Shown: piece after piece, positions 5,628 to 21,118 of the stretch
Layout of the letters: each line of letters begins with the position of its first letter
How positions within the stretch are numbered: the stretch's first letter is position 1
NCBI RefSeq assembly: GCF_055900595.2
Contig: NZ_CM148325.1
Length of the DNA: 64,000 nt
Reading direction: 5' to 3' (one strand)
Position numbers and translations under genes: made by a program
The notes under the pieces: generated by a model
The model's database searches: none
The model's input: only the letters and a program-made list of their open reading frames with translations
What the model was told of the DNA's origin: nothing

Positions 5628-6320
5628 CTAGTGATAACCACGCGCGGTCATAAAATCCGTAATCGCTTTTTCTGCATCAACCAGCACCTTTTCCAGTGGC
5701 TGATTAGCATCGATATCAACCAGTTGTGCACCGCCAAAGGTTAACTGTGGCGTTATGGCAATCTTCCTCGCCAGCGATTCCCGTTTATGGTCGGGTTTAC
5801 GCGCGCAGGCAACTTCAAGGTCAACATTGAGTTTGATGACCAGATCAGGTTTATGGCTCGCCATCCAGTGAAACGCTTTACGTTCCTGGCTTGCCAGCCA
5901 TGAGACAAACCGGCCGCCTTCAACGTTAGGCGGGAACACTGTACCATCGTAAGCGCCAGGAATTTGGTCCTGAGGATAACGGTCGGTTAGAACAATTAAC
6001 CCGCGACGACGACAGGCAAGCATATGACGAAAGCGCAGTAAGCGACGGGCGACAAACGCTGTAATTACCAGCGCCGGAACTGGCCCAGGCAATTTTTTTG
6101 CTGTTTTCACCTGATTTCGTTCAATTGTTTTATGTAAGGATTTTCCCATCAACGGTAATTTTGTCACTGCACGACCGACATTTCCGGCCTGTTTTCCTAA
6201 ATGAACTCTTTCGGCAGCACCATATTTTTCGACAACGGTAATGAGATGTTCACACACCGTTGACTTGCCTGAACCATCGCTACCAATAACGGCAATTAAT
6301 GGAGGTGTTATTGACTGCAT
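5628..6320 (-). CDS. yghT: Uncharacterised P-loop ATP-binding protein, NMP-kinase-like fold
   Basis: 230 aa; N-terminal Walker [10 protein letters not shown]; internal LTDRYPQD (DRY-type motif); paralogous to the next two genes. Confidence 0.8.
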
Positions 6321-6493
6321 GAATATATCCTTTAATTTAAATATCCATTAAAAATATTTATTTGGTTAATATGTTTTTATGAAAGCGTAATTCAGGTCAA
6401 TGTCACAATTAACCATTGTCACAATAAGGTTGAACGGATATTCTGAGCACGGACCACGTAATATTCAATACATTATTTGCTGCCGGGTTTTTC

Positions 6494-7207
6494 GTGAATC
6501 AACGTAATATGTCAATAATTAATTCCACGCCAGTGCGTGTTATTGCCATTGTAGGATGTGATGGTTCAGGTAAATCGACCCTCACGGCAAGCCTGGTAAA
6601 TGAACTGGCAGCAAGAATGCCAACAGAACACATTTATCTCGGGCAATCGTCCGGGCGAATTGGCGAATGGATTTCACAGCTCCCTGTTATTGGCGCACCT
6701 TTTGGGCGTTATTTGCGAAGTAAAGCGGCACATGTGCACGAAAAGCCCTTAACACCGCCTGGCAATATTACTGCGCTGGTTATCTATCTGCTTTCCTGCT
6801 GGCGGGCGTACAAGTTTCGCAAAATGTTGTGTAAAAGCCAGCAAGGCTATCTGCTCATCACCGACCGCTACCCGCAGGTTGAAGTGCCGGGTTTTCGCTT
6901 TGATGGCCCGCAATTGGCAAAAACCACGGGCGGTAACGGCTGGATAAAAATGTTAAGGCAGCGCGAGCTGAAGCTGTACCAATGGATGGCGTCTTATTTG
7001 CCCGTATTGTTGATTCGTCTTGGCATTGATGAACAAACCGCGTTTTCGCGTAAACCTGACCATCAACTGGCGGCGTTACAGGAAAAAATCGCCGTTACGC
7101 CGCAACTGACATTCAATGGCGCCGGGATCCTTGAACTGGATGGTCGGCAACCAGCCGATGAAATTATGCAAGCGTCACTACGCGCAATTCACGCCGCGCT
7201 TTCCTGA
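6494..7207 (+). CDS. yghS: Uncharacterised P-loop ATP-binding protein, NMP-kinase-like fold
   Basis: 237 aa; Walker A GCDGSGKST; ITDRYPQ; C-terminal SRKPDH...TPQLTF shared with yghT. Confidence 0.8.
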   Translation: MNQRNMSIINSTPVRVIAIVGCDGSGKSTLTASLVNELAARMPTEHIYLGQSSGRIGEWISQLPVIGAPFGRYLRSKAAHVHEKPLTPPGNITALVIYLLSCWRAYKFRKMLCKSQQGYLLITDRYPQVEVPGFRFDGPQLAKTTGGNGWIKMLRQRELKLYQWMASYLPVLLIRLGIDEQTAFSRKPDHQLAALQEKIAVTPQLTFNGAGILELDGRQPADEIMQASLRAIHAALS

Positions 7208-7238: not shown

Positions 7239-7997
7239 ATGGATGCACTACAAACACAAACTGTTAATAGTACAACCGTGCCGCAGCCCAACTACATTCC
7301 GGGGCTGATTGCGGTGGTCGGGTGTGATGGCACCGGTAAATCCACGCTGACCACCGACCTGGTGAAATCGCTGCAACAACACTGGCAAACCGAGCGCCGC
7401 TATTTGGGGCTGCTCTCCGGCGAAGACGGCGACAAAATCAAACGATTGCCGTTGGTTGGCGTCTGGCTGGAACGGCGACTGGCGGCCAAATCCTCGAAAA
7501 CCCAAAGCATGAAAACCAAATCTCCAGCGCTATGGGCGGCGGTGATTATGTACTGCTTCTCGCTGCGAAGAATGGCGAATCTACGCAAGGTTCAGCGACT
7601 GGCGCAAAGTGGCGTTCTGGTGGTCAGCGATCGCTTCCCGCAGGCTGAAATTTCGGGCTTTTATTATGACGGACCGGGGATTGGCGTCGAGCGCGCGACC
7701 GGGAAAATCAACCAATTTCTGGCGCAGCGCGAGCGACAGTTATACCAACAAATGGCGCAGTATCGTCCTGAATTAATCATTCGTTTGGGGATTGATATTG
7801 ATACTGCCATCTCCCGCAAGCCTGACCATGACTATGCCGAGCTGCAGGACAAAATCGGCGTCATGTCGACGATTGGCTATAACGGCACAAAAATTCTTGA
7901 GATTGATTCCAGAGCGCCCTACAGCGAAGTGCTGGAACAGGCACAGAAGGCGGTTTCTCTGGTTGCCATCGTTTCTGACCGCCGAAGTTTAACTTAA
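7239..7997 (+). CDS. yghR: Uncharacterised P-loop ATP-binding protein, NMP-kinase-like fold
   Basis: 252 aa; Walker A GCDGTGKST; VSDRFPQ; SRKPDH motif; third paralog. Confidence 0.8.
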   Translation: MDALQTQTVNSTTVPQPNYIPGLIAVVGCDGTGKSTLTTDLVKSLQQHWQTERRYLGLLSGEDGDKIKRLPLVGVWLERRLAAKSSKTQSMKTKSPALWAAVIMYCFSLRRMANLRKVQRLAQSGVLVVSDRFPQAEISGFYYDGPGIGVERATGKINQFLAQRERQLYQQMAQYRPELIIRLGIDIDTAISRKPDHDYAELQDKIGVMSTIGYNGTKILEIDSRAPYSEVLEQAQKAVSLVAIVSDRRSLT

Positions 7998-8042: not shown

Positions 8043-9392
8043 TTGGCGGGTTTTAACATCAAACATTGGTTTGCAGATGGCGCGTTTCGCACCATTATTC
8101 GCAATAGCGCCTGGTTAGGCTCCAGTAATGTCGTGAGCGCTTTGCTGGGTCTGTTGGCGCTCTCGTGTGCCGGTAAAGGGATGACGCCCGCCATGTTTGG
8201 CGTACTGGTGATTGTGCAATCGTACGCCAAGTCGATCAGCGATTTTATTAAGTTTCAGACATGGCAGTTGGTGGTGCAGTACGGAACGCCAGCCTTGACC
8301 AACAATAATCCGCAGCAATTTCGCAATGTCGTCTCATTTTCCTTCTCGTTGGATATCGTCAGCGGCGCGGTGGCGATTGTCGGCGGCATTGCCTTACTCC
8401 CTTTTCTTTCCCATTCATTAGGTCTGGATGACCAAAGCTTTTGGCTGGCAGCGCTGTATTGCACGCTCATTCCTTCAATGGCTTCCTCCACGCCGACCGG
8501 CATTCTGCGTGCGGTAGATAGCTTCGACTTAATTGCTGTACAGCAGGCGACGAAACCTTTTCTGCGCGCAGCGGGGAGCGTCGTTGCCTGGTATTTTGAC
8601 TTTGGTTTTGCGGGTTTTGTTATTGCCTGGTACGCCTCGAATCTTGTTGGCGGCACCATGTACTGGTGGTTTGCCGCACGTGAATTACGCCGCAGAAATA
8701 TCCATAACGCGTTCAAATTGAATCTGTTTGAGTCTGCCCGACACATCAAAGGCGCGTGGAGTTTTGTCTGGTCAACCAACATTGCCCATTCCATCTGGTC
8801 GGCGCGTAATTCGTGCAGCACAGTGTTGGTGGGGATCGTGTTAGGACCCGCTGCCGCCGGGTTATTTAAAATCGCCATGACATTCTTCGACGCCGCCGGA
8901 ACGCCAGCGGGTTTACTAGGTAAAAGTTTTTACCCAGAGGTGATGCGTTTAGATCCGCGCACCACCAGACCGTGGTTGTTAGGCGTGAAGTCCGGTTTAC
9001 TGGCGGGCGGAATCGGTATTCTGGTGGCGCTCGCGGTGTTGATCGTCGGCAAGCCGCTCATTTCGCTGGTGTTTGGCGTTAAGTATCTCGAAGCGTATGA
9101 CCTGATTCAGGTGATGCTGGGCGCAATTGTGATTTCGATGCTGGGCTTCCCACAGGAGTCATTGCTATTGATGGCGGGAAAACAGCGTGCTTTTCTCGTG
9201 GCGCAAACCATCGCCTCAATCGGCTACATCGTATTGCTGTTCATGTTCTGTCATCTGTTTGGCGTGCTGGGGGCTGCATTTGCTTACTTCGCTGGGCAAT
9301 GTCTGGATGTGGTGCTCTCGCTAATTCCAACCTTAAAGGCATTTTTTCAGCGCCATTCCTTGCTTTATAACGCAGCCGGAGAGAAATCCTGA
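8043..9392 (+). CDS. yghQ: MOP/Wzx-like polysaccharide or lipid flippase family inner-membrane protein
   Basis: Polytopic membrane protein (many hydrophobic helices across 449 codons). Start uncertain: the track uses a TTG at 8043; the first in-frame ATG is at 8181 but would remove the first predicted TM helix. Stop overlaps the next start (TGATG at 9389-9394). Confidence 0.75.
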   Translation: MAGFNIKHWFADGAFRTIIRNSAWLGSSNVVSALLGLLALSCAGKGMTPAMFGVLVIVQSYAKSISDFIKFQTWQLVVQYGTPALTNNNPQQFRNVVSFSFSLDIVSGAVAIVGGIALLPFLSHSLGLDDQSFWLAALYCTLIPSMASSTPTGILRAVDSFDLIAVQQATKPFLRAAGSVVAWYFDFGFAGFVIAWYASNLVGGTMYWWFAARELRRRNIHNAFKLNLFESARHIKGAWSFVWSTNIAHSIWSARNSCSTVLVGIVLGPAAAGLFKIAMTFFDAAGTPAGLLGKSFYPEVMRLDPRTTRPWLLGVKSGLLAGGIGILVALAVLIVGKPLISLVFGVKYLEAYDLIQVMLGAIVISMLGFPQESLLLMAGKQRAFLVAQTIASIGYIVLLFMFCHLFGVLGAAFAYFAGQCLDVVLSLIPTLKAFFQRHSLLYNAAGEKS

Positions 9393-10228
9393 TGATGAGA
9401 AAATATTTCCCGCTTGAGGCTAGCGAGCGTCTATTTGTTGCGATTGAAGAAGATGATGTCGTTGATGCACAGGTCAGTTTGCCGCCGACTATCGCACTAA
9501 GTTGTACCACCGAAATCATCCATGATAATTACGCGTTATGCCTGAAATTCTGGCTGGATGGTGTTAATCGTCAGGAGCTACTGCGTTTAATCCGCAAACA
9601 GGCGAAAGGCGATGAGCTGACGACAGACGAGCGCAAAAAGTATAAATACATGCGAGCGCGCTACAAGCATCTGCGCTTTGCGCAACGGCTGTATTTAAAG
9701 AAGCATCAGGCCGGATTTTTATTCGGCAAAACGACCGTTTTTTTGGGGCGTTTTCAGGACGGCTTTCGTAACGGTAAGAAAAATATTGTGTCGTATTACG
9801 GCAACCTGTTACGGGTTTATTTAAGCTCTCCGGTCTGGTCGTTGGTGAACTATTCATTACGCCATAGCCAGTTAGAAAGCGTAAGCGGTTTTATTGCCTA
9901 TCGGCAAAAGCAAATGCATACCCTGAAAGAGATAATTGCCAAACCGCGACTAACTGGCAGGGAATTTCATGATGTGCGAAAAATCATCAGCCAGCAGGTT
10001 TCTTATTACGACACCCTAAGATCGCTTGATCCTGAAAATAAAGAGGCGTTACAGATTTCCCGCTTCCTCGCCGCCATTAATGGCCTGATGGGGGATAAAC
10101 ACGACGACATGGTGGCGGATGATATGGAAAACCGCCAGTCGTATGATGCACCGATGGCGCTGGATAGCGATATTCGTCAGCGCTTAGAACTGCTGATTTC
10201 GCGTTTCCCACTCTATCCGGAGCAATAA
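9392..10228 (+). CDS. Hypothetical protein (278 aa), translationally coupled between yghQ and a YtfJ-like gene
   Basis: Intact ORF with 1-nt overlaps to both neighbours (yghQ stop / its ATG; its stop / next ATG); no motif I can assign; basic, soluble-looking. Confidence 0.6.
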   Translation: MMRKYFPLEASERLFVAIEEDDVVDAQVSLPPTIALSCTTEIIHDNYALCLKFWLDGVNRQELLRLIRKQAKGDELTTDERKKYKYMRARYKHLRFAQRLYLKKHQAGFLFGKTTVFLGRFQDGFRNGKKNIVSYYGNLLRVYLSSPVWSLVNYSLRHSQLESVSGFIAYRQKQMHTLKEIIAKPRLTGREFHDVRKIISQQVSYYDTLRSLDPENKEALQISRFLAAINGLMGDKHDDMVADDMENRQSYDAPMALDSDIRQRLELLISRFPLYPEQ

Positions 10229-10788
10229 TGCCATCTCGTTGGATTTTCGCTCTGATCATCGCACTCTTAGCGCCAGGCGCGGTGGCACACAATTTCGTCA
10301 CTGGTAAAACGGTTACCCCTGTTTATATCCAGGAAGGCGGTGAGTTGCTTCTGAATAGCGACGACGAAATTCACTACCAAAAGTGGAACAGCACACAGCT
10401 GGCGGGAAAAGTCCGCATTATTCAGTATATCGCCGGGCGTAAGTCGGCGAAGAAAAAGAACTCACTGTTAATTAAAGCGGTTGAAGCGGCAAACTTTCCG
10501 CAGGATCGTTTTCAGCCCACCACCATTGTGAACACCGATGATGCCATCTTTGGTACCGACTATTTTGTCGTTGGCAAAATCGAAAAAAATAAACGCCGCT
10601 ATCCATGGGCGCAATTCGTTATTGACGGCAATGGACAGGGACGTGTTGCCTGGCGCTTGCCGGAGCAGAGTTCAACCATTCTGGTGCTGAATAAAAACGG
10701 GCAAATTCAGTGGGCAAAGGACGGCAGCCTGACGCCGGAAGAGGTAGATCATGTCATTGCGCTGGCGCAGAAGCTGATCAATGAATAA
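10228..10788 (+). CDS. YtfJ-family periplasmic protein
   Basis: 186 aa with N-terminal signal peptide (MPSRWIFALIIALLAPGAVAHNF). Strong resemblance over the whole length to remembered E. coli YtfJ (...KTWNS.QL.GKVR..Q.IAGR.SAK..N..LI.A...A..P.DR.Q.TTIVNTDDAI...YPW.QF..D.NG... QWAKDG.LTPEEV...). Confidence 0.7.
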   Translation: MPSRWIFALIIALLAPGAVAHNFVTGKTVTPVYIQEGGELLLNSDDEIHYQKWNSTQLAGKVRIIQYIAGRKSAKKKNSLLIKAVEAANFPQDRFQPTTIVNTDDAIFGTDYFVVGKIEKNKRRYPWAQFVIDGNGQGRVAWRLPEQSSTILVLNKNGQIQWAKDGSLTPEEVDHVIALAQKLINE

Positions 10789-10818
10789 AAAACTCAAAGG
10801 ATTGAGGGCGTTAGTGAG

Positions 10819-11889
10819 ATGAAGCTGGTTGAACACTACATCATGCGTGGTACGCGCCGTCTGGTGCTGATTATCGTCGGTTTTCTGATCTTTATTTTCG
10901 CCAGCTACTCCGCACAGCGTTATCTGACCGAAGCGGCAAATGGGACATTAGCTCTTGATGTTGTGCTGGATATCGTTTTCTACAAAGTGCTGATTGCACT
11001 GGAGATGCTGTTACCTGTTGGACTATATGCTTCAGTTGGCGTGACGCTAGGGCAAATGTATACCGACTCGGAAATTACCGCTATCTCCGCGGCGGGGGGC
11101 AGTCCGGGACGCTTGTACAAAGCCGTTCTTTATCTGGCGATACCGCTAAGTATTTTTGTCACCCTTCTGTCGATGTATGGTCGTCCGTGGGCTTATGCGC
11201 AGATTTATCAACTGGAGCAACAGTCACAGTCGGAGCTGGATGTTCGCCAGTTGCGGGCAAAGAAATTTAACACTAACGATAACGGACGAATGATCCTTTC
11301 GCAGACGGTTGATCAGGATAATAATCGCCTGACTGACGCGCTGATTTATACTTCTACTGCCAATCGAACCCGCATTTTCCGCGCCCGTTCGGTTGATGTG
11401 GTTGACCCATCACCTGAGAAACCGACCGTTATGTTGCATAACGGGACCGCCTATCTTCTCGATCATCAGGGGCGTGACGACAACGAACAGATCTACCGTA
11501 ATCTGCAATTACATCTGAATCCGCTGGATCAAAGCCCTAACGTCAAACGCAAAGCAAAATCGGTCACGGAGCTGGCGCGCTCCGCCTTTCCTGCCGATCA
11601 TGCCGAACTGCAATGGCGACAAAGCCGTGGCCTGACAGCATTGTTGATGGCGCTGCTGGCCATTTCATTAAGTCGGGTAAAACCGCGGCAAGGGCGATTT
11701 TCAACGTTATTGCCACTGACGTTGCTGTTTATTGCCATTTTTTATGGCGGCGACGTCTGCCGTACGCTGGTGGCTAACGGCGCGATTCCCCTCATTCCTG
11801 GTTTGTGGTTAGTACCCGGACTCATGCTAATGGGCCTGCTGATGCTGGTCGCACGCGACTTCTCTTTGCTGCAGAAATTTTCCCGATGA
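10819..11889 (+). CDS. LptF/LptG-family (YjgP/YjgQ) permease, paralog 1
   Basis: 356 aa; N-terminal 3-TM bundle, central soluble (periplasmic beta-jellyroll-like) region, C-terminal TM bundle with RQGRFS motif reminiscent of LptF/LptG (NPRQGR); located outside the canonical lptFG locus. Confidence 0.75.
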   Translation: MKLVEHYIMRGTRRLVLIIVGFLIFIFASYSAQRYLTEAANGTLALDVVLDIVFYKVLIALEMLLPVGLYASVGVTLGQMYTDSEITAISAAGGSPGRLYKAVLYLAIPLSIFVTLLSMYGRPWAYAQIYQLEQQSQSELDVRQLRAKKFNTNDNGRMILSQTVDQDNNRLTDALIYTSTANRTRIFRARSVDVVDPSPEKPTVMLHNGTAYLLDHQGRDDNEQIYRNLQLHLNPLDQSPNVKRKAKSVTELARSAFPADHAELQWRQSRGLTALLMALLAISLSRVKPRQGRFSTLLPLTLLFIAIFYGGDVCRTLVANGAIPLIPGLWLVPGLMLMGLLMLVARDFSLLQKFSR

Positions 11890-12965
11890 ATGTTTTCAGC
11901 CGCTATTTAATCCGTCATCTCTTTCTCGGTTTTGCCGCCGCCGCAGGGCTATTGCTGCCGCTTTTTACCACCTTCAACCTGATTAACGAACTGGATGATG
12001 TCGGCCCGGGCGGTTATCGCTGGACCCAGGCGGTGCTGGTGGTGCTGATGACCTTACCGCGCACACTGGTCGAACTTTCGCCGTTTATCGCCTTATTGGG
12101 AGGGATTGTCGGCCTGGGGCAACTATCGAAAAACAGTGAGCTTACCGCCATTCGCAGCACGGGGTTTTCTATCTTCCGTATTGCACTGGTGGCGCTGGTT
12201 GCCGGGATATTGTGGACTGTTTCGTTAGGCGCGATAGATGAGTGGGTGGCGTCGCCATTGCAGCAACAGGCGCTGCAAATCAAATCGACTGCCACCGCGT
12301 TGGGGGAGGACGATGACATTACCGGCAATATGCTTTGGGCCAGGCGCGGTAATGAATTTGTGACGGTGAAATCGCTGAACGAGCAGGGCCAGCCTGTGGG
12401 CGTGGAGATATTTCATTATCGCGACGATCTCTCGCTCGAATCCTACATTTTTGCACGCAGTGCCTCCATTGAAGACGACAAAACATGGATCCTGCATGGT
12501 GTGAATCATAAAAAATGGTTGAATGGCAAAGAAACGCTGGAAACATCAGATAATCTTACCTGGCAATCGGCCTTCACCAGTATGAATCTTGAAGAGTTAT
12601 CGATGCCGGGAAATACTTTTTCTGTCCGTCAACTTAATCATTACATCCATTATTTGCAGGAAACTGGGCAACCCAGCAGCGAATACCGCCTTGCACTGTG
12701 GGAAAAACTGGGACAACCCATCCTGACCCTGGCGATGATTTTGCTGGCTGTGCCGTTTACCTTTAGTGCCCCGCGTTCGCCTGGGATGGGTAGCCGTCTC
12801 GCTGTAGGCGTCATCGTGGGCTTACTTACCTGGATCAGCTATCAAATCATGGTCAATCTGGGATTGCTATTTGCGTTGAGCGCACCTGTTACCGCGCTCG
12901 GTTTACCGGTAGCGTTTGTGCTGGTGGCGTTGAGCCTGGTGTATTGGTATGACAGACAACATTAA
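11886..12965 (+). CDS. LptF/LptG-family (YjgP/YjgQ) permease, paralog 2
   Basis: Start set at ATG 11886 (MNVFSRYLIRHLF...), overlapping the upstream stop by 4 nt (ATGA); same TM-soluble-TM architecture as the upstream gene. Confidence 0.75.
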   Translation: MNVFSRYLIRHLFLGFAAAAGLLLPLFTTFNLINELDDVGPGGYRWTQAVLVVLMTLPRTLVELSPFIALLGGIVGLGQLSKNSELTAIRSTGFSIFRIALVALVAGILWTVSLGAIDEWVASPLQQQALQIKSTATALGEDDDITGNMLWARRGNEFVTVKSLNEQGQPVGVEIFHYRDDLSLESYIFARSASIEDDKTWILHGVNHKKWLNGKETLETSDNLTWQSAFTSMNLEELSMPGNTFSVRQLNHYIHYLQETGQPSSEYRLALWEKLGQPILTLAMILLAVPFTFSAPRSPGMGSRLAVGVIVGLLTWISYQIMVNLGLLFALSAPVTALGLPVAFVLVALSLVYWYDRQH

Positions 12966-12999
12966 ACCCGCCGTGGCGCAACACCACAGCGGGCTCACA

Positions 13000-14172
13000 T
13001 TACTGCTTCAGAGTAGCGAACGCTTGAATGATGGCATCAATTTGCTCACGACTGTGGGCAGCGTTTACGCTACAGCGCAGCAGCGTGATGCCTGCAGGCG
13101 CGGCAGGTGGCAGGATAAGATTCACATAAACGCCCAGCGAAATAAGCTCGCGCCAGATGCGTAAACCTTCCTCTTTCGAACCGATTATTACTGGCACTAC
13201 CGGGCTAATATGTGAACTTAACTCATAATCCAGTTTTTGCAGACCGTCATACAGATGGTTGGCATTATCCATCAGCTTTTGCCGCAACTCTGGTTGTGAG
13301 GCAATGGTTCTTAACGACGAGCGCACGGTCGCAATGCAGGACGGAGAAGGAGAGGCGGTAAAAATATACGGGCGGCTGCCGTAGCGCAACACTTCCATCG
13401 CTTCCGAACCGACAGCAAAACCGCCAATCGAGGCCAGACTTTTACTGAAGGTACCAACGATAATATCCACATCATCTTCAACGCCAACGGCTTCAGCCAG
13501 TCCGCGCCCCGTTGCGCCTAACACGCCAAACGAATGCGCTTCATCGACAATCAAATAACCACCGAGACGACGTTTGATATCAACAATTTCCGCCAGCGGC
13601 GCAACGTCACCGAGCATACTGTAGATGCCTTCAACGATGATAATCGCCTCTTTTGCCCGTTCACCGAGGCGAACCATGCGCCGTTCCAGATCTTTAGCAT
13701 CGTTATGGCGGAAACGAATAATTTCCGCGCCACCGAGAGAACAGGCGTCATAAATACTGGCGTGGCTGTCGGCATCCAGTAACACCACGGCGTTATGGTC
13801 GGCAAGTGCGCTGATGACGCCTAAATTAGCGGTATAACCGGTTGAAAAAACGATAGCGGTAGGGCGATTAAAAAACTCGGCGATCTCTTTCTCTAACGCC
13901 AGATGCGGCGCATAACTGCCGTTTGCCATACGAGAACCGGTGGTGCCGGTGCCTTGGGCCGCTAACGCTGCCTGACCTTCGGCGATGGCATCATGATTAA
14001 AGGTTAAACCGAGATAATTATTGGTCCCGGCCAGAATCACTTTTTTATTGCCGATCCGACCTTCGGTGGCGGAATACACTTCATCAATACAGGTGCCAAA
14101 CGGTGTTAACCCGTTGTCACTAAATTGCAGTCGCTCGCCAGCAAGGCGCGCATATTTATCGTATAGCCCCAT
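13000..14172 (-). CDS. PLP-dependent alpha-oxoamine synthase (serine palmitoyltransferase / BioF / Kbl family)
   Basis: 390 aa; family-typical N-terminal GSRMANGSY.....LE.E.A.F, and PLP-lysine motif ...IVGTFSKSLASIGGF...; start overlaps the stop of the upstream carrier-protein gene. Confidence 0.85.
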   Translation of the reverse strand: MGLYDKYARLAGERLQFSDNGLTPFGTCIDEVYSATEGRIGNKKVILAGTNNYLGLTFNHDAIAEGQAALAAQGTGTTGSRMANGSYAPHLALEKEIAEFFNRPTAIVFSTGYTANLGVISALADHNAVVLLDADSHASIYDACSLGGAEIIRFRHNDAKDLERRMVRLGERAKEAIIIVEGIYSMLGDVAPLAEIVDIKRRLGGYLIVDEAHSFGVLGATGRGLAEAVGVEDDVDIIVGTFSKSLASIGGFAVGSEAMEVLRYGSRPYIFTASPSPSCIATVRSSLRTIASQPELRQKLMDNANHLYDGLQKLDYELSSHISPVVPVIIGSKEEGLRIWRELISLGVYVNLILPPAAPAGITLLRCSVNAAHSREQIDAIIQAFATLKQ

Positions 14173-14420
14173 TATTTATTCTCCAGCCATGGAAGTAGTG
14201 TTTCCATTAATTGCGCAGGGGTTTTGACATCCAGCAGAATATTAATAGGAATGGAAATATCGAATCTGTCTTCCAGCATCATTAAGAGATCCATCACTTT
14301 GATCGACTCCAGGCCAAGATCGTTGACGAGATCGCTGTCGGGCTTAATTTCCACACCGTTTTCGACCAAATCCTGTAAACAGGAAAGGATGTAATCCATT
14401 ACTATTTCACGATTTACCAT
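14172..14420 (-). CDS. Acyl carrier protein (phosphopantetheine-binding)
   Basis: 82 aa, acidic, with DLGLESIKVMDLLMMLEDRF resembling the ACP DSL/ESx attachment-site helix. Confidence 0.8.
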   Translation of the reverse strand: MVNREIVMDYILSCLQDLVENGVEIKPDSDLVNDLGLESIKVMDLLMMLEDRFDISIPINILLDVKTPAQLMETLLPWLENK

Positions 14421-14451
14421 AGAAACGTTAACACACCTTTAAACAAGACAA

Positions 14452-15366
14452 TCAAAATAGCCCGTTGCGTAATGCGTGTTCCAGGCTAATCCCGGGAAAC
14501 CAATTAATATCTTCAGAAATACGGTTATTACTTGCTGACCAGTCGGCGTGGGTTAATTCACGGATTTTCGAGCGGGTCAGCATAGGTTCTTTACCTGCCA
14601 GGCGACTCAACGCGGTACTGATATCCGCAAGGCAGGTGAGTACCGACAGAGGAATACCAACCATTCGAACGGAACCGCAACGGGCGTCGGCGGCAAGTTG
14701 CTGTACGCGTTGCCAGTCATAGCCGCCGGCGACGCCATCGCATAATTCATAGGTTTGCGTCTGTACAGTTTCGGCGCTTAACCACTGCCCCACGGCTTGC
14801 GCGAAATCGGTGACGTGCAGGAAAGAGAGCTGTGTATCTGGCGCACCAAGTCGTGGCAGCAGGCCGCGCAGCATCCAGTCAAACAGCGGTTTTAACTCTT
14901 TATCGCCGGGACCATACACGGCTGTCGGGCGAAAAATGCCCAGCGTAATTTCGTCAGCCATTGCGGTCAGTCGTTGTTCGGCGACGTGTTTGGAATTTGC
15001 GTACCAGGAGAGTTCGGGATGACGCGCCGCCAGCGAAGAGATAAACAGAAAACGTTGGCAAAAGCCGCTCTCTTTTGCCGCTTGCATCAGGCGCAGGCTG
15101 CCGTCAACGTTACAGCGGGTAAAAATCTCTTCTTTGTGTCCGCGCACTTGTCCGGCGCAATGGACCACCGCGCTGGCTCCGGCAACCAGTTCGCTAAGCG
15201 AATGTGTATCTTCCAGCGAACCGCGCACCCAGATGAGATTATCATTGACGTGAGCGCGGGCAGTACGCGTCAATGCGCGAACGTGAAAGCCGCGGGCGAG
15301 CAGGTTATCGATAATATATTTACCGATAAACCCGGTAGCGCCCGTCACCGCGACAGTTTGATTCAT
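14452..15366 (-). CDS. NAD(P)-dependent epimerase/dehydratase-family (extended SDR) reductase
   Basis: 304 aa with N-terminal Rossmann motif VAVTGATGFIGKYI; 4-nt overlap with the upstream AMP-ligase gene. Confidence 0.8.
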   Translation of the reverse strand: MNQTVAVTGATGFIGKYIIDNLLARGFHVRALTRTARAHVNDNLIWVRGSLEDTHSLSELVAGASAVVHCAGQVRGHKEEIFTRCNVDGSLRLMQAAKESGFCQRFLFISSLAARHPELSWYANSKHVAEQRLTAMADEITLGIFRPTAVYGPGDKELKPLFDWMLRGLLPRLGAPDTQLSFLHVTDFAQAVGQWLSAETVQTQTYELCDGVAGGYDWQRVQQLAADARCGSVRMVGIPLSVLTCLADISTALSRLAGKEPMLTRSKIRELTHADWSASNNRISEDINWFPGISLEHALRNGLF

Positions 15367-17111
15367 GCCAGGGATTCCTGCACATGAAGGCTTGCAGCAT
15401 AAGCCTTCTGATAACGTTTTTTCGCTTCCGCACGGGCAGGCTTGCCGGAGGACGTTCGGGGAATACTGTGGGGCGGCAACAGATCGATAGCCGCGGTTAC
15501 GCCAAATTCGCTTTGGATCCGTGCTGCCAGTGCGTGGATAAGCTGCCCACGACGTTCTTCGTCGCTGATCCTACACTGGATCTGCAGAATGATTTTTTCC
15601 TGGGCGGTAACAAAAGCAATCGCATCGCCAGAATGAATTTCCGGTTCCTGTTCCGCAATATATTCAATATCCTGCGGCCAGATATTACGGCCACGAATAA
15701 TAATCAGATCTTTAATGCGTCCGGTGACATACAGATAACCGTCCAGCAGATAACCGAGGTCGCCGGTATCTAACCAGCCCGTCGCGGCAATCTCGTCTTG
15801 CGAAACCTGGTCGCCAAAGTAACCGCTCATCAGGCTGGGGCCGGAGATGCAAATATGGCCTACCACACGTTCCGCGACCGGCATACCTGCTTCATTGCGG
15901 ATTTCAATGCCATGTTCCGGCAACGCTTTACCGCAGTTGACGAAAGTCGATACGGCGCGTGTTTCAGCACCCGGCGCGACGGCTTTGCCCTGATATTCAA
16001 GGATGTCGCGATCCACTTCGTTAACCACAACCCCGGAGGCTTCATCAGAGAAGCTGACAGCCAGCGCATTTTCTGCCAGTCCGTAGCACGGCATGAACGT
16101 TTTATCGTCAAAGTTAACCTGACGGAAACATTCAGCGAATTGATGGAGTTGTTCTGCGGAGATGGGTTCTGCACCAATACCAGCGACGCGCCAGCAGGAA
16201 AGATCCAGTTCAGCGAGATCTTTTTCATTCACGCGGCGCTGGCACAATTCATAGCCAAACGGCGGCGCAACGGAAACGGTGCCGCGATTTTTACTGATCA
16301 ATTTAAGCCATTGCAGAGGACGCATGGCAAAATCCTGAGTGCGCAAATAATCTACTGAAAGCTGCGTGGCGACGGGGGTCAGGAGAAAGCCGACCAGTCC
16401 CATATCATGGTAGAAAGGCAGCCAGGAGACGCAGCGGTCGCCAGGGCGTAATTTAATGCCATCGTGGCTTATAGCACGTAGATTAGCCATCACTTCGCGA
16501 TGGGTGATAATGACGCCACGGGGAAAACGGGTGCTGCCGGAGGTGTACTGGAGGTAGGCGATATCGTTCGGAACTGGATGCTGGAGTGCAACATCGGCTT
16601 CCGGTAATGCCTTAAACCAGGCGTGGCTTAAAACATGTAATTCGGGGTTGTTATGCGTAGCGGCATTGACCAGTGGCAACCACTCATCACCAGTGATAAT
16701 GGCTGCGGGCTGGCAACTTGCCAGTAAACCCTGCAGTTTGGCGCTCCAGGAATCCCGCTGACCGATGCCCATTGGAATCGCCAACGGGACGGCGACTAAG
16801 CCGGCATACTGGCAGGAAAAAAAAGCCTCTACGAACCCGCTACTGGTTTCGGCAATCAGCGCCACGCGATCGCCTTTTTTCAGGTTCAGCGATAACAACC
16901 GCTTCGCACCAGCTTCGGCACGCGCTTTTAACGTCTGATATTCCAGTTGATCTTCAAGTTGGCAACGTCTGTCATAAAAATTCATTCCGGCGCTACTCAG
17001 AGCGGCGTAGTCCAAAGCATCAACCAGCGTTGGAAAATCGGCATAGCGCATAGGTAGGGAATGCGTAAAGATTTTATTAGACATATACACCACGAAAAAA
17101 TTGGATATCAA
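15363..17111 (-). CDS. AMP-dependent synthetase/ligase (fatty-acyl-AMP ligase / acyl-ACP synthetase-like)
   Basis: 582 aa with the adenylate-forming signature YTSGSTRFPRGV (consensus YTSGSTGxPKGV) and downstream GYG/ETG-type core motifs; exact start (17111 vs 17084) uncertain. Confidence 0.85.
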   Translation of the reverse strand: MISNFFVVYMSNKIFTHSLPMRYADFPTLVDALDYAALSSAGMNFYDRRCQLEDQLEYQTLKARAEAGAKRLLSLNLKKGDRVALIAETSSGFVEAFFSCQYAGLVAVPLAIPMGIGQRDSWSAKLQGLLASCQPAAIITGDEWLPLVNAATHNNPELHVLSHAWFKALPEADVALQHPVPNDIAYLQYTSGSTRFPRGVIITHREVMANLRAISHDGIKLRPGDRCVSWLPFYHDMGLVGFLLTPVATQLSVDYLRTQDFAMRPLQWLKLISKNRGTVSVAPPFGYELCQRRVNEKDLAELDLSCWRVAGIGAEPISAEQLHQFAECFRQVNFDDKTFMPCYGLAENALAVSFSDEASGVVVNEVDRDILEYQGKAVAPGAETRAVSTFVNCGKALPEHGIEIRNEAGMPVAERVVGHICISGPSLMSGYFGDQVSQDEIAATGWLDTGDLGYLLDGYLYVTGRIKDLIIIRGRNIWPQDIEYIAEQEPEIHSGDAIAFVTAQEKIILQIQCRISDEERRGQLIHALAARIQSEFGVTAAIDLLPPHSIPRTSSGKPARAEAKKRYQKAYAASLHVQESLA

Positions 17112-17454
17112 AAATAAAATGACAATAATGCGGTGGATTATATAGGCATAAAAGATAAATGAGATAGTATTTTCATCAGTGTGAAAATGAACATTGATTT
17201 AAATAATGAGTTTGAGTTTTTTGTTTTTATTGTGAATGATATTTAATTTATGAATGTATTAAGAAGAAGCCTTGTCCGGTCGCCTTAAATCGACAAAAGG
17301 CATTGTGGCGCTTCTGTGTAGTCTCTGACCTTATCGTAATCATTAATAAATGCTATTTATTCGTCGTTTGTATTCATTGGGTTGATTATTAAGGTGCCGT
17401 TCGTTGCTGTTGCAACCTGTTTGTCACCGTTAATTATTTGTTACCCACAGAACT

Positions 17455-18597
17455 ATGGAATGCGATCTGCTGATGATTAAAATTGAAAAAGTAATTAATA
17501 AAAATGACCTTAAGGCATTTATCGCTTTTCCGTCATCACTTTATCCCGACGATCCAAACTGGATACCCCCTTTATTCATTGAACGCAACGAGCATTTGTC
17601 TGCGAAAAATCCGGGGACGGACCATATCATCTGGCAGGCGTGGGTGGCAAAAAAAGCCGGGCAGATAGTTGGGCGAATTACCGCGCAAATCGATACCTTG
17701 CACCGTGAGCGTTACGGTGAAGATACCGGTCATTTCGGCATGATTGACGCCATTGATGATCCGCAGGTTTTTGCCGCGTTGTTTGGCGCAGCGGAAGCGT
17801 GGTTGAAGTCACAAGGTGCAAGTAAGATCAGCGGTCCTTTCAGCCTGAATATCAATCAGGAAAGCGGATTACTGATTGAAGGTTTCGATACACCACCCTG
17901 TGCGATGATGCCGCACGGTAAACCGTGGTATGCCGCGCATATTGAACAATTGGGTTATCACAAAGGCATTGATTTACTAGCGTGGTGGATGCAGCGAACC
18001 GATCTCACTTTCTCTCCGGCGCTAAAAAAACTGATGGATCAGGTGCGTAAGAAGGTGACCATTCGCTGCATCAATCGCCAGCGGTTTGCCGAAGAGATGC
18101 AGATCCTGCGTGAGATTTTCAACTCTGGCTGGCAGCACAACTGGGGATTTGTGCCGTTTACCGAACATGAATTCGCGACTATGGGCGATCAACTTAAATA
18201 TCTGGTGCCGGACGATATGATCTACATCGCTGAGATTGATTCTGCACCCTGCGCGTTTATTGTTGGCTTGCCAAACATCAACGAGGCGATTGCCGATCTG
18301 AACGGATCGCTCTTTCCCTTCGGCTGGGCAAAATTGCTGTGGCGTTTAAAAGTCAGCGGTGTGCGAACTGCGCGAGTACCGCTGATGGGCGTGCGGGACG
18401 AGTATCAGTTTAGCCGCATCGGCCCGGTGATTGCGCTGTTATTGATTGAAGCCTTACGCGATCCGTTTGCCCGCCGGAAGATCGATGCGCTGGAAATGTC
18501 ATGGATCCTCGAAACCAATACAGGCATGAATAACATGCTGGAACGCATTGGGGCAGAGCCGTACAAGCGTTACCGATTGTATGAAAAGCAGATTTGA
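17455..18597 (+). CDS. yghO: YghO-family protein, intact; possible GNAT-like N-acyltransferase
   Basis: 380-aa intact ORF where K-12 (as I recall) carries only a yghO pseudogene next to glcC; acyltransferase assignment is my inference from fold-like sequence features, not a motif I can pin down. Start could also be Met at 17473. Confidence 0.65.
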   Translation: MECDLLMIKIEKVINKNDLKAFIAFPSSLYPDDPNWIPPLFIERNEHLSAKNPGTDHIIWQAWVAKKAGQIVGRITAQIDTLHRERYGEDTGHFGMIDAIDDPQVFAALFGAAEAWLKSQGASKISGPFSLNINQESGLLIEGFDTPPCAMMPHGKPWYAAHIEQLGYHKGIDLLAWWMQRTDLTFSPALKKLMDQVRKKVTIRCINRQRFAEEMQILREIFNSGWQHNWGFVPFTEHEFATMGDQLKYLVPDDMIYIAEIDSAPCAFIVGLPNINEAIADLNGSLFPFGWAKLLWRLKVSGVRTARVPLMGVRDEYQFSRIGPVIALLLIEALRDPFARRKIDALEMSWILETNTGMNNMLERIGAEPYKRYRLYEKQI

Positions 18598-18603
18598 TGG
18601 CAG

Positions 18604-19368
18604 TCACCCCTGCTTCATCTCCAGCGGCACCGCCGAGCGAATCAAATGGTGGCCTTCCAGCTCGATATCGTGGAGATTCTTTTTCACGGTCCGCACATGA
18701 TCGCGTGCTGCGCGCTGGGCGACGTGCGGCAGCCGCTGCAACACCGCGTTGTAGATCCGCGCATGCTGGCGATCGATCTGCTTTTTTTGCTGTGGTCGAT
18801 GGTAGAGATTATTTACGCTGGCAAACACTGAATTAAACATCAGATCGGTCAATGATTGCAGCGTAAACACCAACACCTGATTGTGAGAAGCCTGACAAAT
18901 GGCGAGATGGAAAGCGTGATCCAACTGCGCATGTTCGATCAGCGAAATCTCTTTGTTGTTCTCACTGGCGGCGAGCATTTTTTCATAACAGCGGGTTATC
19001 ACAACAAAATCAGCCTGGGTTCCCAGCGTTGCCGCAAGCCTTGCCGATTCCCCCTCCAGCAATGCGCGAACGTCGAGCAGATCGTACAGCGTTCGCGGCT
19101 GCGTGCTGAACAGATGAATTAGCGGGCTGGTATCCTGCACCCGATTAAGCCGTGCGACACGAGAATCGCGACCCTGCGCTGTTTCAATAATCCCGCGCCC
19201 GCGCAGCACGGTCAGCCCTTCACGCAGTGCGGAGCGTGAGAAGCCGAGCTTTTCACACAGTCGACGTTCCGAGGGAAGCGGCTGACCGACCTTCAGTACG
19301 CCGTCGATAATTAACCGTTCGATACTCTCTGCAACCACTTCGCAAATAGGGCGACGTTCATCTTTCAT
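18604..19368 (-). CDS. glcC: GntR-family transcriptional activator of the glycolate operon
   Basis: Start placed at internal Met (MKDERRPICEVVAES..., ATG complement 19366-19368) giving 254 aa; N-terminal wHTH (GntR) and C-terminal FCD-like domain; divergent from glcD. Confidence 0.9.
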   Translation of the reverse strand: MKDERRPICEVVAESIERLIIDGVLKVGQPLPSERRLCEKLGFSRSALREGLTVLRGRGIIETAQGRDSRVARLNRVQDTSPLIHLFSTQPRTLYDLLDVRALLEGESARLAATLGTQADFVVITRCYEKMLAASENNKEISLIEHAQLDHAFHLAICQASHNQVLVFTLQSLTDLMFNSVFASVNNLYHRPQQKKQIDRQHARIYNAVLQRLPHVAQRAARDHVRTVKKNLHDIELEGHHLIRSAVPLEMKQG

Positions 19369-19618
19369 TCCCGGACCTCGTGCACAGGTAGGACCAATTT
19401 TTCTGTTCTTAACTCGCAAAACACGCACATCACGTAAGTGATTATGTTACATCAATTTAACATTAAGTTAACCAAGGCAAGGTCACAGAGCTGGAAAAAA
19501 AATGGTCTGACCGGTAGCTAAAGAGATAGACGAAAACGAAAAGCCCGCTTAATAACTGTTCACAGAAGCAGCGCGCAAAAATCAGCTGCCACACAACACA
19601 ACAAAGCGAAGCCTACTC
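19369..19618. promoter_or_regulatory. Divergent glcC / glcDEFGBA promoter-operator region
   Basis: 250-bp intergenic region between divergently oriented glcC and glcD; promoter elements not individually mapped here. Confidence 0.5.
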
Positions 19619-21118
19619 ATGAGCATCTTGTACGAAGAGCGTCTTGATGGCGCTTTACCCGATGTCGACCGCACATCGGTACTGATGGCACTGCGTGAGC
19701 ATGTCCCTGGACTTGAGATCCTGCATACCGATGAGGAGATCATTCCTTACGAGTGTGACGGGTTGAGCGCGTATCGCACGCGTCCATTACTGGTTGTTCT
19801 GCCTAAGCAAATGGAACAGGTGACAGCGATTCTGGCTGTTTGTCACCGCCTGCGTGTATCGGTGGTGACCCGTGGTGCAGGCACCGGGCTTTCTGGTGGC
19901 GCGCTGCCGCTGGAAAAAGGTGTGTTGTTGGTGATGGCGCGCTTTAAAGAGATCCTCGACATTAACCCCATTGGTCGCCGCGCGCGCGTGCAGCCGGGCG
20001 TGCGTAACCTGGCGATCTCCCAGGCCGTTGCGTCGCATAATCTCTATTACGCTCCGGATCCTTCCTCACAAATCGCCTGTTCGATTGGCGGCAACGTGGC
20101 GGAAAATGCCGGTGGCGTTCACTGCCTGAAATATGGTCTGACCGTACATAACCTGCTGAAAATTGAAGTGCAAACGCTGGACGGCGAGGCGCTGACGCTG
20201 GGATCGGATGCGCTGGATTCGCCTGGTTTTGACCTGCTGGCGCTGTTCACCGGATCGGAAGGTATGCTCGGCGTGACCACCGAAGTGACGGTAAAACTGC
20301 TGCCGAAGCCGCCCGTGGCGCGGGTTCTGTTAGCCAGCTTTGACTCGGTAGAAAAAGCCGGACTTGCGGTTGGTGACATCATCGCCAATGGCATTATCCC
20401 CGGCGGGCTGGAGATGATGGATAACCTGTCGATCCGCGCAGCGGAAGATTTTATACATGCCGGTTATCCCGTCGACGCCGAAGCGATTTTGTTATGCGAG
20501 CTGGACGGCGTGGAGTCTGACGTACAGGAAGACTGCGAGCGGGTTAACGACATCTTGTTGAAAGCGGGCGCGACTGACGTCCGGCTGGCACAGGACGAAG
20601 CAGAGCGCGTACGTTTCTGGGCCGGTCGCAAAAATGCGTTCCCTGCGGTAGGACGAATCTCCCCGGATTACTACTGCATGGATGGCACCATCCCGCGCCG
20701 TGCCCTGCCTGGCGTACTGGAAGGCATTGCCCGTTTATCGCAGCAATATGATTTACGTGTTGCTAACGTCTTTCATGCCGGAGACGGCAACATGCACCCG
20801 TTAATCCTTTTCGATGCCAACGAACCCGGTGAATTTGCCCGCGCGGAAGAGCTGGGCGGGAAGATCCTCGAACTCTGCGTTGAAGTTGGCGGCAGCATCA
20901 GTGGGGAACATGGCATCGGGCGCGAAAAAATCAATCAAATGTGCGCCCAGTTCAACAGCGATGAAATCACGACCTTCCATGCGGTCAAGGCGGCGTTTGA
21001 TCCCGATGGTTTGCTGAACCCTGGGAAAAACATTCCCACGCTACACCGCTGTGCTGAATTTGGTGCCATGCATGTGCATCACGGTCATTTACCTTTCCCT
21101 GAACTGGAGCGTTTCTGA
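19619..21118 (+). CDS. glcD: Glycolate oxidase FAD-binding subunit
   Basis: 499 aa; FAD-binding PCMH-type domain (GAGTGLSGGA), FAD-linked oxidase C-terminal domain; first gene of glc operon. Confidence 0.95.
   Translation: MSILYEERLDGALPDVDRTSVLMALREHVPGLEILHTDEEIIPYECDGLSAYRTRPLLVVLPKQMEQVTAILAVCHRLRVSVVTRGAGTGLSGGALPLEKGVLLVMARFKEILDINPIGRRARVQPGVRNLAISQAVASHNLYYAPDPSSQIACSIGGNVAENAGGVHCLKYGLTVHNLLKIEVQTLDGEALTLGSDALDSPGFDLLALFTGSEGMLGVTTEVTVKLLPKPPVARVLLASFDSVEKAGLAVGDIIANGIIPGGLEMMDNLSIRAAEDFIHAGYPVDAEAILLCELDGVESDVQEDCERVNDILLKAGATDVRLAQDEAERVRFWAGRKNAFPAVGRISPDYYCMDGTIPRRALPGVLEGIARLSQQYDLRVANVFHAGDGNMHPLILFDANEPGEFARAEELGGKILELCVEVGGSISGEHGIGREKINQMCAQFNSDEITTFHAVKAAFDPDGLLNPGKNIPTLHRCAEFGAMHVHHGHLPFPELERF

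Follow-up and report, generated by a model that had tools for sequence, protein, structure and literature searches.

The YghR/S/T kinases, the YghQ flippase and a predicted CHAD-fold protein form the conserved core of an Escherichia coli sphingolipid locus

The 64,000-nucleotide stretch of DNA analysed here (the window; contig NZ_CM148325.1 of RefSeq assembly GCF_055900595.2) carries, in a 2.7-kb segment at positions 8,043 to 10,788, three consecutive genes that encode the MOP-family flippase YghQ, a 278-amino-acid (aa) protein and a YtfJ-like protein. As we show here, this trio occupies the middle of an operon of seven genes (yghS-yghR-yghQ-CHADl-ytfJl-lptF2-lptG2), from which yghT diverges; the operon lies within the published E. 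coli sphingolipid (spt) locus. The 278-aa protein is, according to its predicted structure, a CHAD-fold protein, which we call CHADl. The conserved core consists of the YghR/S/T kinases, YghQ and CHADl, and the YtfJ-like protein is an addition confined to Enterobacterales. A preliminary description of the segment had interpreted the trio, together with the Lpt-like permeases, as an envelope translocation pathway for the product of the adjacent biosynthetic genes. This interpretation is correct on the pathway context, in good agreement with a co-directional operon beside sphingolipid genes and with a parallel in Caulobacter, and wrong on the unit, since the trio is not a single conserved one. 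The evidence points to cytoplasmic-side head-group chemistry with subsequent hand-off of the lipid rather than to a three-part translocation machine.

Conservation of gene order and of the yghQ/CHADl junction

Scanning one genome per species yielded 61 loci, onto which we mapped all 13 window proteins. The scan patterns, taken from an alignment of closer sequences, find only fairly close relatives, and their silence on Caulobacter does not indicate absence from that organism. CHADl directly follows yghQ in every locus with upstream flank, save two orphan second copies. Loci from Enterobacterales (16 named genera) keep the order yghQ, CHADl, ytfJ-like, around which lptF2G2, the spt operon and yghRST come in at least four arrangements; the ytfJ-like gene lies after CHADl in all 46 loci of this order where it is found, even when lptF2G2 has moved elsewhere. 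In Rhodanobacteraceae (Luteibacter, Rhodanobacter and Dyella) the order is yghT, yghS, yghR, aasR, cerR, acpR, spt, yghQ, CHADl, with no ytfJ-like gene and no lptF2G2 within 10 kb. Sphingomonadales (Novosphingobium, Altericroceibacterium and Sphingomonas) have a compact four-gene unit made up of two YghR/S/T-type genes, yghQ and CHADl, set in unrelated flanks.

The yghQ–CHADl pair therefore stays intact through the changes of position of lptF2G2, the spt operon and yghRST, and in all three orders it is accompanied by YghR/S/T genes, two or three per locus. Since these genes occur together in the three orders and, among them, the ytfJ-like gene occurs at this locus in Enterobacterales only, we conclude that kinases, flippase and CHADl make up the core. 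Synteny with spt, acpR, cerR, aasR and bcerS is seen in the window and in nearly all Enterobacterales and Rhodanobacteraceae loci with a long enough flank. Luteibacter (loci L055 and L061) carries two tandem CHADl copies after yghQ, and Pluralibacter (L027 and L034) has a second, orphan copy with no partner genes nearby.

The preliminary description had drawn attention to one-nucleotide stop/start overlaps at both junctions of the trio, an observation that is real, but in part ordinary and in part allele-specific. The TGATG that joins yghQ to CHADl is present as described, and each downstream start has a Shine-Dalgarno sequence inside the upstream gene (GGAGA before CHADl, GGAG before ytfJ-like). 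Overlaps as such are ordinary in this region: the annotated 30 kb contain 21 pairs of neighbouring genes on the same strand, of which 11 overlap by 1–11 nucleotides. The yghQ/CHADl junction is deeply conserved in Enterobacterales, Rhodanobacteraceae and Sphingomonadales: among 56 loci from these three orders, the spacing is −4 (ATGA) in 25, −1 in 12 and 0 in six (43 of the 56 in total), and all junctions except that of one partial locus lie between −26 and +13.

The TAATG shared by CHADl and the ytfJ-like gene, on the other hand, exists in the window sequence as a minority allele and is not conserved. The common E. coli CHADl allele encodes 274 aa, ending CTA-TAA/TAG four codons earlier and followed by an 11-nucleotide spacer to the ytfJ-like ATG; this form is found in three of four E. 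coli genomes sampled across the identity range and in most protein clusters. According to the alignment, the window allele has TAT in place of the TAA/TAG, resulting in read-through to TAATG and a 278-aa product. Across the 46 loci the CHADl to ytfJ-like spacing extends up to 541 nucleotides, with a median of about 30–40. The preliminary description inferred stoichiometric co-expression of the three genes from these junctions; the sequence itself does not show it.

Divergence within Escherichia is uneven along the segment. In comparison with loci L013–L015, CHADl and the YtfJ-like protein show 89–90% protein identity, with 97–98% for the flanking YghQ, 94–97% for LptF2 and 98% for Spt. The DNA identity of most E. 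coli to the window over positions 9300–10400 is only 94–95%, and there seem to be two allele classes. This suggests recombination, or relaxed or diversifying selection, acting on CHADl and ytfJ-like.

Assignment of the encoded proteins

The MOP-family flippase call for yghQ made in the preliminary description was borne out. YghQ scores 30 bits against Pfam Polysacc_synt_3, above the gathering score of 23, and many hydrophobic segments are spread along its 449 aa, as expected of a multi-pass protein. The NCBIfam MOP flippase match has an E-value of 1.4e-8, and since the equivalogs score far below their cut-offs, we regard YghQ as a divergent member of the MOP superfamily to which Wzx and MurJ also belong. 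Known MOP substrates are polyprenyl-diphosphate-linked glycans, and MOP flippases usually carry lipid-diphosphate cargo. The RefSeq name of YghQ, 'lipopolysaccharide biosynthesis protein', is probably misleading. We did not admit the papers on K-12 yghQ (chlorhexidine adaptation, silkworm virulence) as evidence on the trio, the K-12 copy being without the downstream genes.

The 278-aa product had been described as an uncharacterised soluble protein. It indeed lacks both a signal peptide and a membrane segment, but its fold is recognisable. Fold prediction, proposed earlier as a check on this protein, gave a very confident AlphaFold2 model from 36 diverse sequences (pLDDT 95.2, pTM 0.91) with 11 helices and a CHAD fold. 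CHAD domains comprise two four-helix bundles, with specific binding of polyphosphate in a central cavity of basic character (bioRxiv 10.1101/567040). Distant CHADl members pass the Pfam CHAD model (P0181 with 40.9, P0238 with 36.8 and P0228 with 30.7 bits, against a cut-off of 25.6), and some UniRef entries of the family have already been auto-named 'CHAD domain-containing protein'. The two halves of CHADl align in the expected register (RYKHLRFA/FHDVRK and LGRFQD/MGDKHD), although weakly (E 0.0018, probability 15%). Among the 36 diverse sequences R88, H105, G119, H193, R196 and D238 are invariant, and K92, R95, D123, K197, N230, G234, H237 and Y251 nearly so, with K92, R95, K197 and H237 at 90% or more. 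The family is small: its profile matches just 271 clusters at 50% identity among 1.84 billion representatives. In two members of about 980 residues (P0238 and P0243), CHAD-like domains come after an APH/choline-kinase-type domain at the N-terminus.

In common with established CHAD proteins (PF05235; Ricinus 6qv5, Chlorobium 3e0s, Streptomyces PptA 6rn5 and E. coli YgiF), CHADl has conserved His/Arg/Lys motifs in both halves and is encoded beside phosphotransfer enzymes. It differs from them in three respects. The E. coli protein has no Pfam CHAD match, and the same holds for nine close homologs, with E-values of up to 10 admitted; its gene accompanies a membrane flippase and lipid genes instead of PPK, PPX or TTM enzymes; and it has the conserved acidic residues D123 and D238.

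YghR, YghS and YghT are paralogous P-loop proteins with a mutual identity of about 33–40%, and all three keep the Walker A, DRYPQ and RKPDH motifs and have an insertion of about 40 residues after the P-loop. Their joint profile places them in the dTMP kinase superfamily, with thymidylate kinases as the top PDB matches over the full length (3hjn, E 7.5e-7). Kinase and CHADl genes also meet outside the scanned loci: in a metagenome context a distant CHADl (31% identity) adjoins a YghT-like gene of 54% identity, and on another contig a distant CHADl has as its neighbours a YghR/S-like gene and, after it, one for a PAP2 lipid phosphatase; PAP2 is likewise encoded beside a further distant CHADl member. 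On a GC-rich metagenome contig (L006, positions 8202–9846), a YghR/S-like kinase with an N-terminal hydrophobic extension is followed by a PAP2 gene, both divergent from a distant CHADl; the extension would place that kinase at the membrane. The calculated isoelectric points of all six proteins (YghR/S/T, YghQ, CHADl and YtfJ-like) exceed 9, a weak fit to an anionic ligand. The RefSeq name 'dTMP kinase' for YghS and YghT is probably misleading. We also considered YghR/S/T as homologs of the Caulobacter ceramide kinase and rejected this, CpgB being of the DAG-kinase/LCB5 type and YghR/S/T being P-loop proteins.

As the preliminary description had predicted, the third gene of the trio encodes a signal-peptide-bearing protein of the YtfJ family (Pfam YtfJ_HI0045, PF09695, 199.3 bits against a cut-off of 24; TIGR01626, 210.8 bits against 151.1), putatively periplasmic: all 46 orthologs have a Sec-type signal that ends A-x-A before HNF. 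Set beside canonical E. coli YtfJ, whose gene lies near cysQ and to which it is 54% identical, and beside TlpA/ResA/DsbE proteins, whose type of thioredoxin fold it has, it is an additional copy, associated with the sphingolipid locus and devoid of CXXC. Its sequence contains zero cysteines, and hence no peroxidatic cysteine either; the loop after the strand at residues 62–69 is the invariant G70-R71-x-S73-A74-K75-x-x-N78, which takes the place of the CXXC of its relatives as judged by the order of secondary-structure elements, not by residue-level superposition. Because it has no cysteine and the CXXC place is held by G-R-x-S-A-K-x-x-N, the YtfJ-like protein is not a thiol redox protein. It is also unlike LptA, LptC or any other known lipid carrier, and a role as an LptA/LptC-like bridge was rejected on account of its thioredoxin fold, which is not the OstA-type fold. 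An anion-binding role would be a guess.

A possible route for head-group synthesis and export, and competing explanations

The published evidence on the neighbouring genes comes from E. coli in vitro work and heterologous expression (PMC9386255), and from Caulobacter. The BL21 proteins ECD_02851 (AasR), ECD_02853 (AcpR) and ECD_02854 (Spt) were shown to make 3-oxo-sphinganine, with ECD_02852 assigned as the reductase and yghO as the N-acyltransferase (PMC9386255). The Caulobacter sphingolipid locus contains second copies of LptF, LptG and LptC, as well as the candidate flippase CC_1166 (PMC11324152). There, LptF2 and LptG2 are needed to transport sphingolipids, a process in which the locus-encoded MOP-type flippase has been proposed to participate (PMC11324152; bioRxiv 10.64898/2026.04.12.717747). 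Furthermore, lptF2/lptG2 can be deleted only in the absence of spt, and their products bind the housekeeping LptB; the same study draws the E. coli UTI89 locus next to that of Caulobacter and states that the periplasmic and outer-membrane steps of sphingolipid transport are still unknown (bioRxiv 10.64898/2026.04.12.717747).

Both loci combine a MOP-type flippase gene and lptF/lptG paralogs (in Caulobacter CC_1166, LptF2/CC_1156 and LptG2/CC_1155) with spt, acpR, cerR, aasR and bcerS, and have no lptB copy. This likeness of YghQ to CC_1166, and of the LptF2/G2 proteins of the two loci, is one of gene content and family; we found no E. coli ortholog table in the supplements of PMC11324152. Unlike the Caulobacter locus, the E. 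coli-type locus has neither LptC2 nor the head-group genes (the ceramide kinase CpgB, a Tam41-like protein and a phosphoglycerate transferase), and instead has YghR/S/T, CHADl and the YtfJ-like protein. The export of lipopolysaccharide (LPS), which is flipped by MsbA and then extracted by LptB2FGC, follows the same logic of flipping and subsequent extraction by an LptFG-type permease, except that the flippase there is the ABC transporter MsbA and here the MOP-type YghQ.

We propose, at what we consider an even chance of being right, that a unit on the cytoplasmic side, made up of the kinases, CHADl and YghQ, synthesises an anionic head group and flips the lipid, with LptF2G2 then extracting it. 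AasR, AcpR, Spt, YghO and CerR would make ceramide or oxo-ceramide at the cytoplasmic face, and YghR/S/T would add an anionic phosphate or phosphoanhydride head group to it. CHADl, acting as a cytoplasmic partner of YghQ, may bind this head group, or the phosphate substrate of the kinases, via its conserved Arg/Lys/His residues; we suggest this role because of its fold, its conserved translational coupling and its recurrent pairing with the kinases. YghQ would then flip the lipid to the periplasmic leaflet and, by analogy with Caulobacter, LptF2G2, probably powered by the housekeeping LptB, would extract it toward the outer membrane. In the last and weakest step the redox-inactive YtfJ-like protein, a later Enterobacterales addition, may act in the periplasm by binding the anionic head group or by processing it. 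The chain is coherent because dTMP kinases transfer phosphate onto a phosphate, MOP flippases usually carry lipid-diphosphates and CHAD domains grip phosphoanhydride chains. The mechanism builds on gene content, folds, synteny and junction conservation, from which head-group chemistry, binding, flipping and extraction are extrapolated. A bolder version, in which YghR/S/T and CHADl act as a membrane-directed relative of the polyphosphate kinase PPK3, building pyrophosphate or short polyphosphate on ceramide that YghQ flips and LptF2G2 passes on to the cell surface, strikes us as distinctly improbable.

Several points weigh against the proposed head-group and export unit. The trio is not mentioned in the literature searched. 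The E. coli CHADl has no meaningful sequence match in Pfam, NCBIfam or the PDB, whether searched as a single protein or as profiles of 10 and 36 sequences, and its assignment to CHAD leans on distant relatives and a predicted structure. The CHAD domains whose structures have been solved bind free polyphosphate and no other phosphate ligands (bioRxiv 10.1101/567040), so that binding of a lipid head group would be a new property for the domain. No YghQ–CHADl fusion was found among the family members, the long ones being tandem CHADl duplications or APH-kinase fusions, and the more distant CHADl relatives have unrelated neighbours. Finally, the Sphingomonadales four-gene unit lies more than 10 kb from spt, and the sphingolipid link in this order is drawn from the biology of the organisms and not from synteny.

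Ordinary operon compaction would be another explanation of the gene arrangement: the proteins would be independent of each other, CHADl would serve as a general helical accessory or regulatory protein, and the YtfJ-like protein, a surplus copy of a periplasmic stress protein, would have nothing specific to do with lipid export. The frequency of overlaps among same-strand pairs of the region fits this, as do the allele-specific CHADl/ytfJ-like overlap, the variable spacing at that junction and the faster divergence of these two proteins within Escherichia compared with their neighbours (89–90% versus 96–98% protein identity). What it does not account for is that the adjacency of yghQ and CHADl, with its overlapping junction, has survived across three orders and repeated rearrangement of the neighbours, and that the ytfJ-like gene follows CHADl in 46 of 46 Enterobacterales loci even with lptF2G2 elsewhere. 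We consider this explanation unlikely.

Somewhat more unlikely, in our estimate, is that YghR/S/T and CHADl constitute a soluble, PPK3-like system for free polyphosphate, placed beside the flippase and spt genes for regulation or energy supply. The idea draws on PPK3, described in 2026 as a polyphosphate kinase formed by two dTMP kinase paralogs, a catalytic subunit and a regulatory subunit that is inactive alone, and encoded with PPX, SixA and a CHAD protein (PMC12995831). As in the Sulfolobus PPK3 operon (Saci_2019/2020 with the CHAD protein Saci_2021), at least two dTMP kinase-like paralogs are encoded with a CHAD-type protein at the E. coli locus, the pairing recurs in the distant contigs, and the known ligand of solved CHAD domains is polyphosphate. 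However, the locus has no PPX, SixA or Pst genes, and no other polyphosphate genes were seen there or at the related loci examined; the catalytic motifs are kept in all three YghR/S/T paralogs, which also differ from PPK3 by the insertion after the P-loop; and the YghRST profile shows no specific affinity to the PPK3-type structure 2plr/5h70, which it matches at the P-loop only (E 0.0077), ordinary thymidylate kinases matching better. E. coli, the host of the locus, has PPK1. Most PPK3 organisms, in contrast, have neither PPK1 nor PPK2 (PMC12995831). A soluble polyphosphate system would also leave unexplained why the CHADl start is fused to the flippase stop in three orders.

We also considered the YtfJ-like protein as the missing periplasmic electron donor for the ceramide reductase CerR, which would turn the trio into a flip-and-reduce unit. 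In Caulobacter CerR is periplasmic and the source of its reducing power is unknown (PMC11087976), and the YtfJ-like protein shares the fold of periplasmic thiol-disulfide oxidoreductases. The complete lack of cysteines led us to reject it as a CerR redox partner. Moreover, the CXXC position is occupied by the invariant G-R-x-S-A-K loop, the loci of Rhodanobacteraceae and Sphingomonadales lack the gene, and E. coli CerR starts directly with its nucleotide-binding motif, with no evident signal peptide; this explanation is close to refuted.

The proposed cytoplasmic-side unit bears on the acknowledged open question of how bacterial sphingolipids cross the envelope (bioRxiv 10.64898/2026.04.12.717747). 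It also bears on whether the locus gives rise to a sphingolipid in E. coli, and on the identity of that lipid, matters that the literature searched does not address for these genes. New here are the recognition that the E. coli-type locus and that of Caulobacter differ in their sets of head-group and transport genes, and the definition of a conserved core of YghR/S/T, YghQ and the CHAD-fold protein, with specific residues and partners as candidates. If confirmed, a fold known only for polyphosphate binding would be tied to membrane lipid export, which is unexpected. Should the version with polyphosphate on ceramide be true, most E. coli strains and many Sphingomonadales could display (poly)phosphate anchored to a lipid, and no such class of envelope lipid has been described so far.

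The locus in E. coli and its surroundings

Several E. coli chromosomes match the 2.7-kb segment with 100% identity, and the window is E. coli chromosome; the features discussed are collected in the table below. Among 5426 complete E. coli genomes, 4128 (about 76%) contain the yghQ-CHADl-ytfJ-like segment at 80% coverage or more, and a full-length ytfJ-like gene is missing from about 1300. K-12 strains carry the locus in truncated form only; on this question the genome scan shows just partial matches in some E. coli genomes. O157:H7 strain 86-24 (L073) was matched solely via the canonical ytfJ near cysQ, and the locus copy is apparently absent from it.

Features of the yghQ locus in the window
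Feature	Position	Strand	Description and evidence
yghT	5628..6320	-	P-loop kinase resembling dTMP kinase; divergent from yghS; Walker A G-x-D-G-S-G-K-S-T, DRYPQ, RKPDH
yghS	6494..7207	+	Paralogous P-loop kinase, first gene of the operon; promoter-like site at 6416-6444 (such sites are at chance level here)
yghR-like	7239..7997	+	Third paralogous P-loop kinase, 252 aa; TIGR00041 E 1e-7, below family cut-off
yghQ	8043..9392	+	MOP/Wzx-type flippase, 449 aa full-length, multi-pass; TTG start, same as PGAP start
TGATG overlap, yghQ/CHADl	9390..9394	+	yghQ TGA (9390-9392) shares one base with ATG (9392-9394)
CHADl	9392..10228	+	Predicted cytoplasmic CHAD-fold protein, 278 aa; predicted structure and distant relatives
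TAATG overlap, CHADl/ytfJ-like	10226..10230	+	TAA (10226-10228) shares one base with ATG (10228-10230)
ytfJ-like	10228..10788	+	Secreted cysteine-free thioredoxin-fold protein, 186 aa, YtfJ paralog; full-length YtfJ family match
lptF2	10819..11889	+	Paralog of the LPS permease LptF; TIGR04407 317.5 bits against 230; Pfam LptF_LptG
lptG2	11886..12965	+	Paralog of LptG; TIGR04408 307.2 bits against 240; ATGA overlap with lptF2; start as in PGAP
Hairpin	12963..12997	.	16 bp, GC-rich; lies precisely between the lptG2 and spt stop codons (convergent genes)
aasR-cerR-acpR-spt operon	13000..17111	-	Sphingoid base synthesis; NCBIfam serine palmitoyltransferase 595.8 bits, fatty acyl-AMP ligase 874.6 bits
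yghO	17455..18597	+	Candidate bacterial ceramide synthase (aca/bCerS); named as aca homolog ECD_02850 (PMC9386255)

The operon ends at the hairpin, which is the top terminator-like site in a 13-kb scan and is likely to be a two-way terminator. Promoter-like sites within the operon are at chance level (14 seen, 15.3 expected) and thus uninformative on internal promoters. In the RefSeq annotation of strain FDAARGOS_448 the hyb genes, yghU, gss and pitB are followed by yghT on the minus strand and then by yghS, a 252-aa hypothetical protein (yghR-like), the 'lipopolysaccharide biosynthesis protein' (yghQ), a hypothetical protein, a YtfJ family protein, 'lptF' and 'lptG'. On the opposite strand come spt, acyl carrier protein, an epimerase/dehydratase-family protein and a fatty acyl-AMP ligase, and after these yghO and glcC. 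The extra copies lptF2 and lptG2 exceed the NCBIfam equivalog cut-offs and so receive in RefSeq the names lptF and lptG of the housekeeping LPS permeases, which is probably misleading.

Coordinate mapping to the annotated strain shows that the window (positions 1–669) starts within an IS3-family (IS1397) transposase gene between hybG and yghU. In Rhodanobacter sp. L36 (L059, positions 10804–20758) a yghO homolog heads a same-strand run of genes for a membrane-fusion protein, two RND pumps and an outer-membrane factor, with no lptF2G2; this RND system may take over sphingolipid export in that organism.

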